A stretch of 4,789 nucleotides of DNA from a virus (Duplodnaviria > Heunggongvirae > Uroviricota > Caudoviricetes): IMG/VR virus record IMGVR_UViG_2585427785_000003. One strand, 5' to 3'. A program made the translations under genes and the position numbers. How positions within the stretch are numbered: the stretch's first letter is position 1; each line of letters begins with the position of its first letter. The notes below the pieces were generated by a model. The model made no database searches. It saw only the letters and a program-made list of their open reading frames with translations, and was not told the origin of the DNA. Positions 1 to 4,789 of the stretch are shown here, piece by piece.

Positions 1-467
1 AACACATCAATGATGAACGCCACATAAACGAAGCCCTGCCATGTGCTGACGTAAGTAAAATCAGCCACCCACAGCTGGTCTGGTCGTTCTGCCACGAACT
101 GACGGTTTACGCGGTCGCCTGCGGCAACGGCTTTCCGGCTGATGGTCGTACGGACCTTTTTACCCCGGAGAACACCGGCAAGTCCCATAACCGCCATGAG
201 ACGTGCCACAGTGCATCTGGCCACTCTGATACCTTCCCGTAACAACTGACGCCAGACTTTACGCACACCGTATACCTTGTGATTTTCATCGTATACGCGC
301 TGTATCTCTTTCTTCAGCCAGTCATCGCGCTGCGCACGGGCACTGCGTTTATCAGGACGATGTCGCTGTTGCTGACAGTGGTAATACGTTGACGGGGCAA
401 TATGCAGTTCGCTGCATAGCGGTCCGCCCCCGTACTGCTCACGCAGCTTATCCAGCAGTGGCATCAT
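1..467 (-). CDS. IS3-family transposase OrfB (DDE integrase domain), N-terminal ~155 codons; 3' part lies outside the window
   Basis: The minus-strand frame starting ATGATG at 467-462 translates [155 protein letters not shown] with no stop down to position 1. It is in the -1 frame relative to orfA and overlaps the orfA stop, as in IS3-family orfAB arrangements. It is absent from the ORF track only because it runs off the window. Confidence 0.85.
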
Positions 468-790
468 TTTTTCCAGAGGCGGTCGAACTCCGCCTTCGCA
501 AAATAAGCGGAAGCCTGGCGAAGGATATCGTTACTGCGGCGCAGTTCACGATTTTCACGTTCCAGCTCTTTCAGACGCTGACGTTCAGCGGTGGTGAGCC
601 CGCCATCACCGCCTCCGGTATCCCGCTCATGCTGGCGTACCCAGACAAGCAGAGTCTCCGGTGTACAGCCAATCTTTGGGGCAATGGAACAAATTGCCGC
701 CCACTGTGAGTCATATTCGCCCTGACTTTCCAGAACCATACGGACTGCCCGTTGACGGACTTCGGGGGAAAAACGAGTATTTTTAGTCAT
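464..790 (-). CDS. IS3-family transposase OrfA (helix-turn-helix / leucine-zipper DNA-binding subunit), 108 aa
   Basis: The ORF-track protein [108 protein letters not shown] matches the IS629/IS1203 OrfA as I recall it. It ends LWKK-stop at an A6 run (plus-strand T-run 467-472) immediately overlapping the orfB ATG. Confidence 0.9.
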
Positions 791-819
791 CCTGTTTACC
801 TCTTTCTCAGGAAGTTTAG

Positions 820-844
820 TCTCCAGGATCCCCGGGGCGGTTCA
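820..844. repeat. Terminal inverted repeat (IRL) of the IS element
   Basis: This is the terminal ~25 bp of the IS, ending ...GGGGCGGTTCA at 844 on the plus strand (TGAACCGCCCC... when read from the IS end inward). The exact IR length cannot be fixed because the opposite end is outside the window. Confidence 0.5.
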
Positions 845-923
845 AGTCTTATCTGCAGCATCAGTACTCCTTTAAGATTGAAAATCCTGCCAATAAGCAC
901 GAGCGTCCTCATCATAAATATCT

Positions 924-927
<4 letters not shown>
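845..927 (+). pseudogene. 3' remnant of a lambdoid class I holin (S) gene, interrupted by the IS insertion
   Basis: The frame ending in TGA at 925-927 (ATGA overlap with the endolysin start) translates ...SYLQHQYSFKIENPANKHERPHHKYL-stop. This resembles the charged C-terminal tail of lambda-type holins (recalled lambda S C-terminus ...[22 protein letters not shown]). The frame is cut by the IS end at 844, so the N-terminal transmembrane part is missing from this side of the IS. Confidence 0.5.
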
Positions 928-1951
<1,024 letters not shown>

Positions 1952-2133
1952 GGTAATATTAAATCGGAACATTTACATCGCGGAATGTAAAATTTAAATA
2001 AAAAGGACTCTTCCATGAGCCAAAATTCCTGAAATCTTAAGGGTAAGATAAAAGGTCTTAATCAGAATGACACGTTTTATTAATAAATAAAGCTATTCTT
2101 TCATTGCTGTGTTTTTCTTTACAAAAGTAATCC

Positions 2134-2162
2134 TTGCTATGGGTGGTTAATCATGCGTTAAT
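2134..2162 (+). promoter_or_regulatory. Candidate sigma70 promoter of the cold-shock gene (cspA-type): -35 TTGCTA 2134-2139, 17-bp spacer, extended -10 TGcGTTAAT 2154-2162; predicted TSS near 2169
   Basis: The hexamers and spacing are seen directly. The architecture parallels the cspA promoter as I recall it (TTGCAT, 17 bp, TGgCTTAAT), with an AT-rich UP-like tract upstream (2075-2130). The predicted TSS gives a 5' UTR of about 145 nt, in the range reported for cspA-family genes. A second candidate is the extended -10 TGtTATAAT at 2202-2210. Confidence 0.45.
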
Positions 2163-2168
2163 GGTGTT

Positions 2169-2313
2169 CTGGTTTGTTACAAATTTATCTGAAGCAGTCA
2201 TTGTTATAATTTTATTATTTGTACCTCTTGAGATTTCCTTGTTGGTTTTTCTCTCTGATATTTTTTTTCGGACCATTCTGCCCAAGGGCTAATTTCTTCA
2301 AAAGGTAATAATT
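2169..2313 (+). promoter_or_regulatory. cspA-type long 5' UTR with cold-box-like start (GGTTTGTTACAAATT...) and the conserved AAGG Shine-Dalgarno context
   Basis: The UTR begins ...GGTTTGTTACAAATTTATCTGAAGCAGTC, which aligns with the recalled cspA leader start ACGGTTTGACGTACAGACCATTAAAGCAGTG. The sequence immediately before the ATG, AAAAGGTAATAATTATG, resembles the cspA AAAGGTAATACACTATG. Confidence 0.45.
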
Positions 2314-2526
2314 ATGTCTAACAAAATGACTGGTTTAGTGAAATGGTTTAACCCTGAAAAAGGTTTTGGTTTCATCACGCCGAAAGATGGCAGCAAAGAT
2401 GTGTTTGTCCATTTCTCAGCAATTCAGAGCAACGATTTCAAAACATTAACTGAGAATCAGGAAGTTGAATTTGGTATTGAGAACGGACCTAAAGGTCCTG
2501 CCGCTGTTCATGTAGTGGCGCTTTGA
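2314..2526 (+). CDS. cspI: CspA-family cold-shock protein (CspI-like), 70 aa
   Basis: The ORF translation [70 protein letters not shown] contains the RNP1-like KGFGFI and RNP2-like VFVHF motifs of the cold-shock domain. It matches the prophage-borne CspI rather than CspA/B/G as I recall them. It has a strong SD (AAGG) and a long structured leader. Confidence 0.9.
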
Positions 2527-2536
2527 GGTAGACAAT

Positions 2537-2725
2537 ATTACAAACCATATTCACTTTAGATGCCCGTGTTGTCATGGTTCCCAGTATAGAACATCATCTT
2601 TTGATGTTTCTGACATGAATCCTTTCGGGGCAAAATGTATCTTTTGTAAATCAATGATGATTACATTTGATAATATTTCACAATACTTAAATGCCAGCCG
2701 TCTGTCGTTGGATTTAAAAAAGTGA
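2537..2725 (+). CDS. Candidate small Cys-rich (zinc-ribbon-like) protein; start codon uncertain (no in-frame ATG/GTG/TTG upstream of the first Cys pair; possible ATT start at 2537 with GAGG SD, or ATG at 2615 giving a 36-aa product)
   Basis: The frame is open from 2516 to the stop at 2723-2725 and reads ...ITNHIHFRCPCCHGSQYRTSSFDVSDMNPFGAKCIFCKSMMITFDNISQYLNASRLSLDLKK. The two Cys clusters (CPCC and CIFC) are about 25 residues apart. The ORF ends 5 nt before a strong intrinsic terminator. A GAGG sits 8 nt upstream of the ATT at 2537. A K-12 Qin prophage gene of this position (ynfN) is recalled from memory only; its sequence is not recalled. Confidence 0.3.
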   Translation: MTNHIHFRCPCCHGSQYRTSSFDVSDMNPFGAKCIFCKSMMITFDNISQYLNASRLSLDLKK

Positions 2726-2730
2726 AAATG

Positions 2731-2756
2731 AAGGCTCCTTCGGGAGCTTTTTTGCT
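2731..2756 (+). terminator. Rho-independent terminator: 8-bp stem (2731-2738 / 2743-2750) with UUCG tetraloop followed by a T-run
   Basis: AAGGCTCC-TTCG-GGAGCTTT followed by TTTGC, giving a GC-rich stem, a stable UUCG tetraloop and a run of 6 or more T. It lies directly after the small ORF and the cspI transcription unit. Confidence 0.7.
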
Positions 2757-2797
2757 TGGTGTCTATTCGATGGATACTCACATACTACGGTAACATC

Positions 2798-3028
2798 ATG
2801 AAAAAAATCATAGTTTTTTTTAACTCTGAACCAGCAGTGGTAGTGCCAGCGATGACTGGAGTTAACACCATCATGCGTGAATATCCAAATGGCGAAAAAA
2901 CACACCTTACTGTAATGGCCGCAGGGTTTCCATCTCTGACCGGAGATCATAAAGTCATTTATGTAGCCGCGGATCGACATGTTACTTCAGAAGAAATTCT
3001 GGAAGCAGCAATAAGGCTCTTGAGTTGA
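2798..3028 (+). CDS. Hypothetical 76-aa protein, YmcE-like (partner gene found upstream of gnsA/gnsB-type genes); alternative starts TTG 2756 / GTG 2759
   Basis: The ORF-track frame from the ATG at 2798 reads MKKIIVFFNSEPAVVVPAMTGVNTIMREYPNGEKTHLTVMAAGFPSLTGDHKVIYVAADRHVTSEEILEAAIRLLS. It lies immediately upstream of a gnsB-like gene, as ymcE does for gnsA in K-12 (recalled synteny and length, not sequence-verified). No good SD precedes the ATG, and the longer TTG/GTG-initiated version would overlap the upstream terminator. Confidence 0.45.
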   Translation: MKKIIVFFNSEPAVVVPAMTGVNTIMREYPNGEKTHLTVMAAGFPSLTGDHKVIYVAADRHVTSEEILEAAIRLLS

Positions 3029-3121
3029 TTTGATGCTATTGCATTGATAATTCAGGAAAATTCTCTTTGTCTGTTTGTGTAAAATTTAGACTATCGTATG
3101 TTGATTATTGCGATGTTTCAT

Positions 3122-3150
3122 CTTATCTTTTACACGTTTGCACCATATAA
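3122..3150 (+). promoter_or_regulatory. Candidate sigma70 promoter for the gnsB-like gene: perfect -10 TATAAT 3145-3150 with weak -35 TTATCT 3122-3127 (17-bp spacer)
   Basis: A consensus TATAAT lies about 50 bp upstream of the gnsB start codon and the -35 is weak. This is a sequence-only prediction. Confidence 0.35.
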
Positions 3151-3199
3151 TCGACTTACTGTGTAACTGGAAAGTCATAACAGACTAAAAGAGGAAATG

Positions 3200-3373
3200 A
3201 TGAATATTGAAAACTTAAAAACAAAAGCAGAAGCAGATATTTCTGAATATATAACAAAAAAAATTATTGAACTTAAGAAAAAGACCGGGAAAGAAGTTAC
3301 CAGTATTCAGTTTACCGCACGGGAAAAAATGACGGGTCTTGAAAGCTATGATGTCAAGATTAATTTAATCTGA
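3200..3373 (+). CDS. gnsB: GnsA/GnsB-family small protein (57 aa)
   Basis: The translation MNIENLKTKAEADISEYITKKIIELKKKTGKEVTSIQFTAREKMTGLESYDVKINLI closely resembles the recalled K-12 GnsA/GnsB sequences (MNIEELKKQAE...FTAREKMTGLESYDVKIKIM). A GAGG SD lies 5 nt upstream of the ATG at 3200; an ATG at 3197 is also in frame. It is missing from the ORF track because it is under 60 aa. Confidence 0.8.
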   Translation: MNIENLKTKAEADISEYITKKIIELKKKTGKEVTSIQFTAREKMTGLESYDVKINLI

Positions 3374-3400
3374 TGTATTCAATAATAAAATTTATCCATA

Positions 3401-3423
3401 AACCTCGTTTTTACGGGGTTTTG
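3401..3423 (+). terminator. Probable intrinsic terminator after the gnsB-like gene (stem 3401-3408 / 3413-3420, TTTT loop, followed by TTTTG)
   Basis: AACCTCGT-TTTT-ACGGGGTT then TTGTTAT; the stem includes one G-U pair and the U-tract is partly inside the stem, so it is of moderate strength. Confidence 0.4.
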
Positions 3424-3524
3424 TTATATTTGAATGGTTCCGAATATCTAAATCACAATTGTTGATGGTTTTTATTAAACCAATGCAGTCCGGCTCAGGA
3501 GTGAGAGAAGCCGGACGTTATGGT

Positions 3525-3935
3525 TTAGCGTGGTAAGATCTGTGTAGTTTTCTGGATGCTTTCAGTAAATAGTAATGAATTATCAAAGGTATAGTAATAT
3601 CTTTTTTGTTCGTGGATATTTGTAACCCACCGAAAAACTCCTGCTTTAGCAAGGTTTCTTCTGTATTCCTGAAATGTGATCTCTCTGGATTTCAGCTTAT
3701 TAGAGGTCGTTTCTATAAGATGCCTATCCTTTGAAAATTTGACAGACACAATGTTTTTTAGGCCCTTTAATAACACTGTATTATCATTTTTTAATACAAT
3801 ATGAACATTCTCTGTGGCTAAATAGTAAATGTAATGTGAGACATTGTGACGTTTTAGCTCAGAATAAAACCATTGATAGTTTAAATCGTTTCGAACTTTA
3901 TCAAATATTTGTTTAAAAATGACTACCTGATCCAT
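3525..3935 (-). CDS. ydfO: DUF1398-family protein (YdfO/YbcV-like), 136 aa from the second ATG; the ORF track's longer version starts at 3950
   Basis: The minus-strand ORF reads [145 protein letters not shown] (3948-3943) lies 7 nt upstream of the ATG at 3935, whereas the ATG at 3950 has no SD. The family assignment is from memory of prophage YdfO/YbcV proteins and their position next to gnsB in Qin-like prophages. Confidence 0.7.
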
Positions 3936-3992
3936 AGATAAACCTTCCATGTGATATGAGGGGGCGTAGTCTGCACGATTATCTAAATTGCT

Positions 3993-4226
3993 TCAATCTG
4001 GTCTGACCTGTTTTCTGAGCAATTCAGTAATGTCACTCTTTTCTTTGTTTGCTTCAGAAGAAACTCTTTTTTCTGAGCACAGTCTCCGGCGGCAGGCTTC
4101 AATGACCCAGGCTGAGAAATTCCCGGCCCCTTTTTGCTCAAGAGCGATGTTAATTTGTTCAATCATTTGGTTAGGAAAGCGGATGTTGCGGGTTGTTGTT
4201 CTGCGGGTTCTGTTCTTCGTTGACAT
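3993..4226 (-). CDS. Small ribbon-helix-helix-like (Arc/Mnt/CopG-type) putative DNA-binding protein, 77 aa; homolog of the conserved ORF found at the right end of phage lambda next to cos
   Basis: The ORF-track protein is MSTKNRTRRTTTRNIRFPNQMIEQINIALEQKGAGNFSAWVIEACRRRL.... It shows a basic N-terminal arm, a beta-strand-like RNIRFP, helix A, a G-x-G-N-x-S turn and helix B, which fits the RHH pattern (compare Arc ...QFNLRWPREVLDLVRKVAEENGRSVNSEIYQRVMESF). A nearly identical ORF is recalled in the lambda right arm on the complementary strand. Confidence 0.65.
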   Translation of the reverse strand: MSTKNRTRRTTTRNIRFPNQMIEQINIALEQKGAGNFSAWVIEACRRRLCSEKRVSSEANKEKSDITELLRKQVRPD

Positions 4227-4374
4227 GAGGTTGCCCCGTATTCAGTGTCGCTGATTTGTATTGTCTGAAGTTGTTTTTACGTTAAGTTGATGCAGATCAA
4301 TTAATACGATACCTGCGTCATAATTGATTATTTGACGTGGTTTGATGGCCTCCACGCACGTTGTGATATGTAGA

Positions 4375-4389
4375 TGATAATCATTATCA
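4375..4389. repeat. Perfect 15-bp palindrome TGATAATCATTATCA, nested in a larger inverted repeat GTGATA...TATCAC (4363-4390); Fur-box-like
   Basis: Seen directly. The 19-mer 4370-4388, GTAGATGATAATCATTATC, matches the Fur-box consensus GATAATGATAATCATTATC at 16 of 19 positions. Confidence 0.6.
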
Positions 4390-4394
4390 CTTTA

Positions 4395-4600
4395 CGGGTC
4401 CTTTCCGGTGATCCGACAGGTTACGGGGCGGCGACCTCGCGGGTTTTCGCTATTTATGAAAATTTTCCGGTTTAAGGTGTTTCCGTTCTTCTTCGTCGTA
4501 ACTTAATGTTTTTATTTAAAATACCCCCTGAAAAGAAAGGAAACGACAGGTGCTGAAAGCGGGCTTTTTGGCCTTTGTCGTTTCCTTTCTCTGTTTTTGT
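4395..4600. other. Lambda-type cohesive end site (cos): cosQ region about 4400-4424, cosN 12-nt overhang sequence GGGCGGCGACCT at 4425-4436, and cosB with terminase-binding R-sites R3 (4479-4490), R2 (4534-4549, inverted) and R1 (4576-4590)
   Basis: 4401-4436 reads TTTCCGGTGATCCGACAGGTTACG followed by GGGCGGCGACCT, which is the lambda right end joined to the lambda left cohesive end as I recall them. Downstream there are three copies of the CGTTTCC(G/T)TTCT R-element, one inverted, and the nu1 ATG is exactly 191 nt after the first cosN base, as in lambda. Confidence 0.85.
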
Positions 4601-4614
4601 CCGTGGAATGAACA

Positions 4615-4789
4615 ATGGAAGTCAACAAAAAGCAGCTGGCTGACATTTTCGGTGCGAGTATCCGTACCATTCAGAACTGGCAGGAACAGGGAATGCCCGT
4701 TCTGCGAGGCGGTGGCAAGGGTAATGAGGTGCTTTATGATTCTGCCGCCGTCATAAAATGGTATGCCGAAAGGGATGCTGAAATTGAGA
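4615..4789 (+). CDS. nu1: Terminase small subunit Nu1 (DNA-packaging protein), N-terminal 58 codons; continues beyond the window
   Basis: The translation MEVNKKQLADIFGASIRTIQNWQEQGMPVLRGGGKGNEVLYDSAAVIKWYAERDAEIE matches the lambda Nu1 N-terminus (winged-helix DNA-binding domain). It is absent from the ORF track because there is no stop within the window; the overlapping track ORF 4550-4756 is in another frame. Confidence 0.9.
   Translation, partial: MEVNKKQLADIFGASIRTIQNWQEQGMPVLRGGGKGNEVLYDSAAVIKWYAERDAEIE

Follow-up and report, generated by a model that had tools for sequence, protein, structure and literature searches.

The window, i.e., the whole stretch of 4,789 nucleotides of DNA that was analyzed, corresponds to the late region of a Qin-type lambdoid prophage, with the gene order rrrQ-rzpQ-cspI-ynfQ-ynfR-ynfN-gnsB-ydfO-ynfO-cos-nohA. 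A Qin-type region is carried by approximately 2150 of 5426 complete E. coli genomes, and the closest known system is the cspI-ynfQ-ynfR-ynfN-gnsB segment of K-12 Qin (b1552, b4724, b4749, b1551, and b1550); positions 2250 to 3480 are identical to the K-12 Qin DNA except for one base. The gene order from rrrQ to nohA is common to both but, different from K-12 Qin, the window features an IS3-family element at positions 1 to 844, which interrupts ydfR. The identity of every gene was assigned through the RefSeq annotation of identical DNA and through family matches (Table 1), and none of the five neighboring proteins matched a defense system in PADLOC. The layout described by the initial annotation, namely, a 76-aa open reading frame (ORF) at 2798 to 3028, a 171-bp spacer (3029 to 3199) with a TATAAT hexamer, and a 57-aa GnsA/GnsB-family gene at 3200 to 3373, was confirmed in all its parts. 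The segment from 2798 to 3373 is made up of ynfN and gnsB, two E. coli Qin prophage genes that are already annotated and already known, so the main outcome is the correction of a label: what had been called a 76-aa YmcE-like ORF is YnfN in an annotated Qin prophage region, in itself an ordinary finding.

Table 1. Features of the cspI-gnsB segment and the evidence for each
Feature	Position	Strand	Evidence
cspI 5' UTR and coding region, cspA-type RNA thermoregulator	2168..2553	+	Rfam RF01766, 112.8 bits versus a gathering score of 78
cspI coding sequence	2314..2526	+	PF00313; RefSeq cspI
ynfQ, YmcF-like CxxC zinc-ribbon small protein, 62 aa, annotated ATT start	2537..2725	+	PF23641, 103 bits; RefSeq
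ynfR, 21-aa small ORF across the terminator hairpin; stop 4 nt before the ynfN ATG	2728..2793	+	RefSeq
Intrinsic-terminator-like hairpin (AAGGCUCC-UUCG-GGAGCUUU) with U6 run, between ynfQ and ynfN	2731..2753	+	RNA fold
ynfN, full-length 76-aa form	2798..3028	+	RefSeq "protein YnfN" WP_000720962.1 (231 bp); PHROG 3425
T8 homopolymer in ynfN codons 6 to 8	2814..2821	+	Only difference from K-12 Qin (T7) in the alignment
Promoter-like block TTGATT, 17 nt, TATCTT	3101..3129	+	Best-conserved spacer block, Escherichia versus seven Citrobacter loci
TATAAT hexamer	3146..3151	+	Sequence; without a good -35 at 16 to 18 nt
gnsB, 57 aa, GAGG Shine-Dalgarno at 3191 to 3194	3200..3373	+	PF08178; DNA identical to K-12 gnsB
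Intrinsic terminator after gnsB	3400..3431	+	Terminator scan: 9-bp stem, 4 GC pairs, T-rich tail

The product of the 76-aa ORF matches PHROG 3425 over the whole profile (180.4 bits, positions 1 to 76 of 76) and thereby belongs to the YnfN family, a small, single-domain family with 45 representatives among 1.84 billion proteins; NCBIfam holds no model that matches either YnfN or GnsB. Homologs of 75 to 76 aa occur across the Enterobacteriaceae, in 46 species genomes. Their length and the motifs FFN, PNGE, and SLTGDH are kept across genera, and the residues FFN, P-G, S-TGDH, and R are invariant among 16 sequences. The ORF runs from ATG 2798 to a stop codon at 3026 to 3028, but the same frame also opens at TTG 2756 or GTG 2759 (90 aa), and its start had been regarded as ambiguous. 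The ambiguity is removed by the full-length homologs, all 44 of which start with MKK(V/I)..VFFN at the position of ATG 2798, and by a pN/pS of 0.32 for codons 1 to 25 and likewise of 0.32 for codons 26 to 76. The pattern of codon substitution thus indicates that purifying selection acts on the entire ynfN and that ynfN is a real, well-conserved gene. Furthermore, the structure predicted by AlphaFold2 (pLDDT of 89.3) consists of a five-stranded sheet and a C-terminal helix, and the comparison of this model with known folds returned no match, including no known antitoxin or DNA-binding fold.

The T8 homopolymer of the window is T7 in K-12 Qin, and it follows that the window encodes the full 76-aa YnfN, in place of the 51-aa remnant of K-12, which is annotated from the internal Met26 because of the T8-to-T7 frameshift. 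Among E. coli records, 1043 contain the exact 8T form and 417 the exact 7T form. For annotators, it is useful to consider that the ancestral YnfN has 76 aa and that the K-12 reference entry (51 aa) reflects a homopolymer frameshift.

In the region upstream of ynfN, the ATT start of ynfQ is kept in 25 of 37 homologous loci, and csp and/or ynfQ lie directly 5' of ynfN, in the same orientation, in 41 of 46 genome loci. The RNA fold of positions 2700 to 2830 has an energy of -32 kcal/mol (z = -3.0), and the hairpin between ynfQ and ynfN has a counterpart at the equivalent place in the K-12 cspG locus and in Citrobacter, Klebsiella, and Raoultella; ynfR, which is read across it, was found by tblastn only in Escherichia/Shigella-type loci. 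The YnfR-SPA fusion has been detected and is strongly induced by cold shock (PMC6001520). Moreover, the published induction ratios of cspI, ynfQ, and ynfN are near-identical in three conditions (6.5/5.9/5.8, 4.3/4.0/9.9, and 38/42/51, respectively; PMC11228462). The RF01766 leader found here, together with the cold induction of YnfR and the co-induction of the other three genes in these two studies, assigns the genes to a CspA-type cold-shock unit, of which ynfN is most likely the distal gene. In particular, transcription of the cspI-ynfQ-ynfR-ynfN unit would start at the cspI cold-shock promoter, with its thermoregulated leader, and would reach ynfN via read-through of the hairpin terminator at 2731 to 2753. 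CspA-family proteins are known for their antiterminator activity, which may aid read-through to ynfN in the cold. Translation of ynfN would then begin at ATG 2798 with a weak GGT Shine-Dalgarno, possibly aided by ribosomes that finish ynfR 4 nt upstream. Across the Enterobacteriaceae, YnfN is to be grouped with the csp-ymcF/ynfQ cold-shock cassette rather than with gns, a point that may also be of use in annotation.

The same region offers some arguments for the opposite view, according to which no protein is made from the 76-aa ORF and only gnsB matters. The initial annotation had reported no Shine-Dalgarno before the ORF and, even though one is not wholly absent, it is limited to the weak GGT at -9 to -7; in addition, the terminator hairpin lies immediately 5' of ynfN, the RNA fold contains an A7/U8 hairpin that could sequester the start region, and K-12 and the 417 records carry the 7T frameshift allele. 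However, all 76 codons are under purifying selection, length and motifs are conserved across genera, the structure model is confident, and many homologs present a good GGAG or GGTG Shine-Dalgarno at the equivalent position. Since, moreover, ynfN mRNA is co-induced with cspI (PMC11228462) and the product of ynfR, which lies between the terminator and ynfN, is synthesized upon cold shock (PMC6001520), we regard a noncoding ynfN as very unlikely.

The downstream gene, which had been described as GnsB-like, encodes GnsB itself, identical to K-12 GnsB. Its product matches Pfam PF08178 (GnsAB_toxin) with 120.2 bits against a cut-off of 27, over profile positions 1 to 54 of 54, and is therefore a member of this family; it starts at ATG 3200, which aligns with the Citrobacter start, whereas ATG 3197 does not align. 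The window GnsB is 67% identical to GnsA (yccL) over all 57 residues and matches the GnsA structures 4XO2/4XO1 with an E value of 5e-20. The fold in these crystal structures (4XO1/4XO2) has been described as a helical-hairpin dimer. A role of overproduced GnsA and GnsB in membrane lipid composition, as the initial annotation mentioned, is documented: both genes are multicopy suppressors that increase unsaturated fatty acids, with plasmids that elevate 16:1/18:1 fatty acids and rescue the growth of relA fadR, fabA6, secG, and lapC190 mutants (10.1101/2024.03.27.586906; PMC10607373). At low temperature, the overproduction of GnsA has been reported to increase acidic phospholipids as well. In expression, gnsB clusters with cspB/C/I (PMC2717919). 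GnsB is most likely a GnsA-like small modulator of membrane lipids. The two genes differ in their context: gnsA belongs to the chromosomal cspH-cspG locus, without ynfN or ynfR, and its start overlaps the ymcE ORF, whereas gnsB is prophage-borne and stands behind the 171-bp spacer.

Within this spacer, the consensus TATAAT is present, but the hexamer occurs no more often than by chance (2 in the window versus 3.06 expected), and it is not conserved in Citrobacter. The promoter scan called no sigma-70 site in the ynfN-gnsB spacer, the hexamer being left uncalled because no good -35 lies at 16 to 18 nt. The conserved block at 3101 to 3129, TAACCTGTTGATTATTGAATCTTTC, is found again in K-12, where it lies 5' of gnsA and within the ymcE ORF (z = 6.7 to 8.5 versus shuffles), and its conservation suggests that it could be a promoter. 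Most likely, gnsB is expressed separately, with its own strong Shine-Dalgarno, this putative promoter, and its own terminator. The terminator scan found no canonical terminator after ynfN within the window; therefore, ynfN transcripts could extend into gnsB.

The initial annotation had interpreted the two genes as a second copy of the ymcE-gnsA module. In fact, ymcE does precede gnsA in K-12, and the locus is paralogous to the chromosomal cspG-ymcF-...-gnsA locus (DNA identity of 74% for csp/ymcF and 73% for gns), but the upstream ORF is YnfN and not YmcE. YmcE (Sfa; PF15939), the proposed GnsA antitoxin, shares with the window ORF a length of 76 aa and an end beside a gns gene; different from it, YmcE is genus-restricted, and the two sequences have no similarity. 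The protein alignment with BLASTP gave no alignment at an E value of <= 100. Pfam PF15939 (YmcE_antitoxin), which matches YmcE itself with 188.9 bits, did not match the 76-aa ORF even at an E value of <= 10, NCBIfam NF007379 matches YmcE only, and tblastn of YmcE against the entire window returned nothing real, the best hit (E value of 0.087) being on the antisense strand. That the 76-aa ORF is nevertheless a YmcE homolog, and the pair a duplicate of the proposed YmcE (antitoxin)-GnsA (toxin) module, would be suggested by the equal length, by the equal position 5' of a gns gene, and by the paralogy of csp, ymcF/ynfQ, and gns between the two loci; refuted at the sequence level, this possibility is close to negligible, and the shared length is a coincidence. 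Moreover, ymcE overlaps the 3' end of ymcF and the start of gnsA and is made of terminator DNA and of DNA that is noncoding spacer in Qin and Citrobacter. YmcE homologs are limited to Escherichia, Shigella, and one partial record labeled Salmonella (28 proteins), whereas Gns and YnfN are far more widespread.

The correspondence between the two loci can be followed along the DNA, since the ymcE-encoding stretch of the cspG locus corresponds in the window to the 3' end of ynfQ and the terminator (the ynfR position) and, further on, to the noncoding spacer just 5' of gnsB. The P-GAF residues common to YmcE and YnfR are there because both are read through one hairpin, and for no other reason. The block TTGATTATTG lies within the ymcE region. 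We also considered ymcE as a decayed remnant of ynfN, which was unsupported: when the three forward frames of the K-12 ymcE region were searched with the YnfN profile, only FFFNA was recovered (E value of 0.11 among three sequences), and the local DNA alignment of the ymcE interior with ynfN-containing regions was significant only in the spacer block and not in ynfN coding DNA. It is possible that the cspG locus lost ynfN by deletion.

In Pfam and in RefSeq, the Gns family carries the label "addiction module toxin." For the toxin-antitoxin claim on ymcE-gnsA, reviews cite Yamaguchi and Inouye (2011) and Wei et al. (2015). In such reviews, the two genes are listed as a toxin-antitoxin pair (PMC8484670; PMC6265476). 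Like the canonical type II operons relBE and yefM-yoeB, ynfN-gnsB consists of two small co-oriented genes, with a downstream gns family labeled "toxin" in databases; different from them, it features neither a short junction, nor obligate co-occurrence, nor a DNA-binding antitoxin fold, nor an evident autoregulated single promoter. In particular, instead of the overlapping or very short junction of a single type II operon, the spacer measures 171 bp here and 86 to 2160 nt in relatives, and, instead of a toxin always accompanied by its cognate antitoxin, Gns occurs without YnfN in 35 of 80 phage loci (6 of 22 dereplicated locus clusters). The toxin/antitoxin pairing put forward for the 76-aa ORF and gnsB is not supported, and the evidence argues against a ynfN-gnsB toxin-antitoxin operon. 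Both ynfN and gnsB belong to the known accessory ("moron") genes found in the interval from the lysis genes to cos, and we consider it likely that they are neighbors in a cold-adaptation cargo cluster rather than a toxin-antitoxin operon of the YmcE/GnsA type; for the cluster taken together, the role in cold adaptation is one that we infer. It is on the ymcE ORF that the database label "GnsA/GnsB addiction module toxin" is based. Since this ORF is genus-restricted and is made of terminator DNA and of DNA that is noncoding 5' of other gns genes, we suggest that the assignment of the entire Gns family to toxin-antitoxin systems be re-examined experimentally.

A looser relationship between the two genes has to be weighed against their being simply neighbors in a cargo cluster. 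When metagenome and viral contigs were scanned with a mixed Gns alignment, all the loci recovered were of the Qin type and near-identical, with one architecture in 146 of the 150 usable ones, and the useful diversity of Gns loci came from a second viral scan using a divergent Gns clade. Among species genomes, gns is found downstream of ynfN in 17 of 46 and is missing in the other 29; in phages, YnfN and Gns are adjacent in 16 of 22 clusters, always with YnfN first. Neither csp nor ynfQ is found in the vicinity of three of the YnfN-Gns genome loci or of most phage clusters. The adjacency is far commoner than for unrelated genes, and therefore some functional link is possible; its recurrence in loci without csp and ynfQ gives some weight to the reading of YnfN as a Gns partner.

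YnfN and GnsB could thus be a functional pair of the toxin-antitoxin-like or of the regulator-effector kind, in which YnfN would bind or counteract GnsB and the phage would carry both genes to check a lipid-perturbing GnsB. The recurrent adjacency in fixed order and orientation, its occurrence without csp or ynfQ, and the persistence of the pair down to 53 to 58% identity in both proteins are in line with this proposal, as are the toxin labels, the listing of ymcE-gnsA in reviews, and the lower ATP and higher persister counts reported upon overexpression of gnsA and gnsB (10.1101/310961). However, neither gene needs the other: to the 29 YnfN loci without gns and the 35 Gns phage loci without YnfN must be added the E. 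coli K-12 gnsA locus, which has no ynfN, and the Gns loci without YnfN showed no consistent replacement gene upstream. K-12 is viable with gnsB and a frameshifted ynfN, and gnsA and gnsB clones are routinely used without a partner as growth-rescuing multicopy suppressors (10.1101/2024.03.27.586906; PMC10607373). On these grounds, we regard a functional pair as rather unlikely. We judge unlikely, too, the more specific proposal that YnfN is a dedicated Gns partner, whose fold would bind or control the GnsB dimer in a loosely linked, phage-borne effector-modulator pair, distinct from a classical operon, with which lambdoid phages would retune host membrane lipids in the cold.

The organization of the junction, which is never tight, likewise speaks against a functional pair and fits better with separately acting neighbors of a cargo cluster. 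The sRNA gene STnc100, with its own terminator, lies between ynfN and gns in all three of the long-spacer phage loci tested; a strong terminator-like hairpin occupies the equivalent spacer position in five of six long spacers scanned, and a conserved TATAAT/TATGAT-like motif is found near gns in long spacers. In phage PHB10, the csp...ynfN arrangement is followed by its own terminator, without gns.

Sequence identity shows the window to be the late region of an Escherichia coli Qin-type lambdoid prophage: many complete E. coli chromosomes match positions 845-4789 at 100% identity, and the segment 2300-3480 is found in 2150 of 5426 complete genomes. The gene map was taken from the RefSeq annotation of identical DNA and of K-12 MG1655, with which the profile searches concurred for every mapped gene. 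The IS3-family element is inserted in ydfR, of which about 83 nt remain before rrrQ, and in IS-free strains the match to the window begins only at 845; an ALIL frameshift pseudoknot (RF01497) lies within this minus-strand element, at 393-509.

Features of the window and, where an L number is given, of comparison loci
Feature	Positions	Strand	Source
IS3-family element	1-844	-	RefSeq
ydfR 3' end	845-927	+	RefSeq
rrrQ lysozyme	924-1457	+	RefSeq
rzpQ	1454-1951	+	RefSeq
cspA-type thermoregulator over cspI leader	2168-2553	+	Rfam, 112.8 bits vs 78
cspI	2314-2526	+	RefSeq
ynfQ	2537-2725	+	RefSeq
ynfR	2728-2793	+	RefSeq
ynfN	2798-3028	+	RefSeq
Conserved TTGATT-17-TATCTT block, putative promoter	3101-3129	+	conservation
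gnsB Shine-Dalgarno GAGG, good	3191-3194	+	
gnsB	3200-3373	+	RefSeq
gnsB own terminator	3400-3431	+	terminator scan
ydfO	3525-3950	-	RefSeq
ynfO	3993-4226	-	RefSeq
nohA	from 4616	+	RefSeq
STnc100 between ynfN and gns (phage and genome loci)	L273 2127-2322; L241 2108-2310; L047 2773-2975		Rfam RF02076
YnfU-like small zinc-ribbon ORF	L256 2101-2265	+	
YnfU-like small zinc-ribbon ORF	L223 2133-2294	-	
YnfU-like small zinc-ribbon ORF	L004 2688-2930	-	

The coordinates and lengths in the initial annotation were correct, including the 76 aa of the ORF opening at ATG 2798 and the in-frame TTG 2756 and GTG 2759, but this ORF, described there as YmcE-like, is YnfN. RefSeq names it 'protein YnfN', and PHROG 3425 matches it along its full length. 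K-12 YmcE (MRRWISQNN...) and the window protein (MKKIIVFFN...) gave no BLASTP alignment at E <= 100; the Pfam model PF15939, 'YmcE_antitoxin', scored 189 bits on YmcE and matched the window ORF at no E value up to 10; NCBIfam NF007379 matched YmcE only, and tblastn with YmcE across the whole window found no match.

Furthermore, ynfN is a real, conserved gene, with homologues of 75-76 aa in Citrobacter, Klebsiella, Raoultella, Kluyvera, Enterobacter, Scandinavium, Phytobacter and others, at identities down to 36%. All of them open with MKK(V/I)..VFFN at the aligned ATG, 5' of which the sequences differ; as judged from this alignment, ATG 2798 is the start, which had been regarded as ambiguous. 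Between 2250 and 3480, the window differs from K-12 Qin by a single T, the run at 2814-2821 being T8 here and T7 in K-12. In the T7 allele, the frame is lost after codon 7, which is why K-12 YnfN is annotated as a 51-aa protein from the internal Met26. Among E. coli records, 1043 carry the exact 8T form and 417 the exact 7T form, the latter including K-12 derivatives, e.g., MG1655 and C600. Since pN/pS against the window gene is 0.32 in both codons 1-25 and codons 26-76 (with pS near saturation), the N-terminal part absent from the K-12 annotation is equally constrained. The AlphaFold2 model is confident (pLDDT 89.3, pTM 0.77), with five strands and a C-terminal helix, and the family, single-domain throughout, is small: of 1.84 billion proteins, 45 representatives reached E <= 0.001. 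At the ynfN start (2799-2822), the frameshift-prone T8 run can become part of an A7/U8 hairpin (AUGAAAAAAAUCAUAGUUUUUUUU), and both homopolymers of this hairpin are prone to slippage.

The alignment with the K-12 gnsA locus indicates what corresponds to ymcE. The csp and ymcF/ynfQ genes align at 74%, the gns Shine-Dalgarno sequence and coding region at 73%, and the terminator hairpin 3' of ymcF/ynfQ is common to both loci. In K-12, the ymcE ORF (1248-1478 of this locus, L292) starts within ymcF, crosses the terminator hairpin of that gene and extends over the gnsA start. The central part of its DNA, TAACCTGTTGATTATTGAATCTTTC, matches the non-coding ynfN-gns spacer of Citrobacter at its best-conserved block (z = 6.7-8.5 relative to 300 dinucleotide shuffles) and, more weakly, window 3099-3120 (z = 3.1); the 3' part of ymcE matches the C. 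murliniae gns leader. From these alignments, the window counterpart of ymcE is ynfR plus the non-coding spacer and not ynfN; the 'P-GAF' shared by YnfR (MKAPSGAFLL...) and YmcE (...LPRGAFFI...) reflects the translation of one and the same hairpin in both. Tested as a decayed form of ynfN, ymcE gave a negative result. YmcE homologues amount to 28 proteins, found only in Escherichia, Shigella and one partial record labelled Salmonella, and ymcE may not be a functional antitoxin gene.

The gene initially called GnsB-like is gnsB itself: its 57-aa product scores 120 bits with PF08178, shares 67% identity with GnsA and matches the sequences of the GnsA crystal structures 4XO1/4XO2. The spacer (3029-3199) is indeed 171 bp long and carries TATAAT at 3146-3151, but this hexamer is not above chance in the window (2 against 3.06 expected), has no usable -35 and is not conserved in Citrobacter. 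With its own putative promoter and terminator, gnsB is probably expressed separately; since no canonical terminator was found 3' of ynfN in the window, read-through from ynfN is possible. Plasmids carrying gnsA or gnsB increase unsaturated fatty acids, those with gnsA also acidic phospholipids, and gns plasmids rescue secG-null, fabA6, relA fadR and lapC190 strains (10.1101/2024.03.27.586906; PMC10607373).

The neighbours of ynfN, scored with profiles built from the loci, link it to the csp cassette: among 46 species-representative genome loci with a YnfN homologue, 41 have a csp and/or ynfQ/ymcF-type gene directly 5' in the same orientation, and only 17 have gns downstream, with none within 2.5 kb in the other 29. 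In several loci with a chromosomal-type cspH(-)/cspG-like(+) arrangement, ynfN lies downstream and gns is missing; some of these have ymcF between cspG and ynfN. In phage PHB10, csp...ynfN ends in its own terminator and gns is absent. Conversely, the E. coli gnsA locus lacks ynfN. The E. coli Qin segment is also present on a contig (JAGZPX010000007.1) that bears the label of a Veillonella parvula metagenome-assembled genome; its YnfN match and four neighbour proteins are 100% identical and the others 78-99%, and the label is almost certainly a binning error.

The close GnsB relatives all lie in Qin-type loci and are hence non-independent. In a divergent Gns clade on viral contigs (80 loci), YnfN is upstream in 45 and absent in 35 (16 against 6 dereplicated clusters), at ynfN-gns distances of 86 to 2160 nt. 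The sRNA gene STnc100 separates the two genes in all three tested spacers of 430-460 nt (58-67 bits vs 47), and no such element occurs in the window; a strong terminator-like hairpin holds the same position in five of six long spacers scanned (the three STnc100 loci and two more), with a conserved TATAAT/TATGAT-like motif 3' of it, near gns. The Gns-only loci showed no consistent upstream partner gene; small CxxC zinc-ribbon ORFs are present in them on either strand. YnfU-like CxxC...CxxC ORFs adjoin gns or ynfN in phage loci in which the other of these two genes is missing.

The toxin/antitoxin reading of ynfN-gnsB failed on every testable defining feature, namely, a tight operon junction, obligate co-occurrence and an antitoxin-like fold. 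In PMC8484670 and PMC6265476, that label concerns ymcE-gnsA and traces to Yamaguchi & Inouye 2011 and Wei et al. 2015. K-12 is viable with gnsB and a frameshifted ynfN, and both gns genes serve as growth-rescuing multicopy clones. A functional pairing seems improbable, but we leave it a small chance because the YnfN-then-Gns order is fixed and is seen repeatedly also where csp and ynfQ are missing (16 of 22 phage clusters). The observation behind the initial annotation was partly confirmed, and the interpretation given there was supported in part. The two genes were known and annotated before; what may be useful to annotators is that ancestral YnfN has 76 aa, is frameshifted in K-12 and is linked to the csp cassette, and that the ymcE ORF is composed of terminator and gns-upstream DNA.

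The segment probably belongs to a phage-borne cold-adaptation cargo cluster, in which YnfN and GnsB, a lipid modulator, are accompanied by an RNA chaperone and a zinc-ribbon protein. CspA-family proteins are antiterminators. Transcription from the cspI promoter would stop in part at the hairpin 2731-2753 and in part continue into ynfR-ynfN, and read-through may rise in the cold through these proteins. Cold shock strongly induces YnfR-SPA, of which hardly any is detected at 37 C (PMC6001520), the expression of cspI, ynfQ and ynfN shifts together across three conditions (PMC11228462), and gnsB expression clusters with cspB/C/I (PMC2717919). The Shine-Dalgarno sequence initially reported as missing at ATG 2798 is weak, yet a GGT is present, and translation of ynfN might be aided by ribosomes ending ynfR 4 nt upstream. 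Such coupling is not a conserved requirement, because ynfR is Escherichia-specific and many homologues carry GGAG or GGTG at the same position.

The annotated start of the YmcF/YnfQ zinc-ribbon protein is ATT, both in the window (2537-2539) and in K-12 ymcF (L292 1085-1087), 10 nt 3' of the csp stop codon, which the GAGG or AAGG Shine-Dalgarno sequence overlaps in most loci. Of 37 homologous loci, 25 have ATT at the aligned start, 3 have ATC and 5 have ATG; an AUU start conserved in a cold-shock gene is reminiscent of infC.
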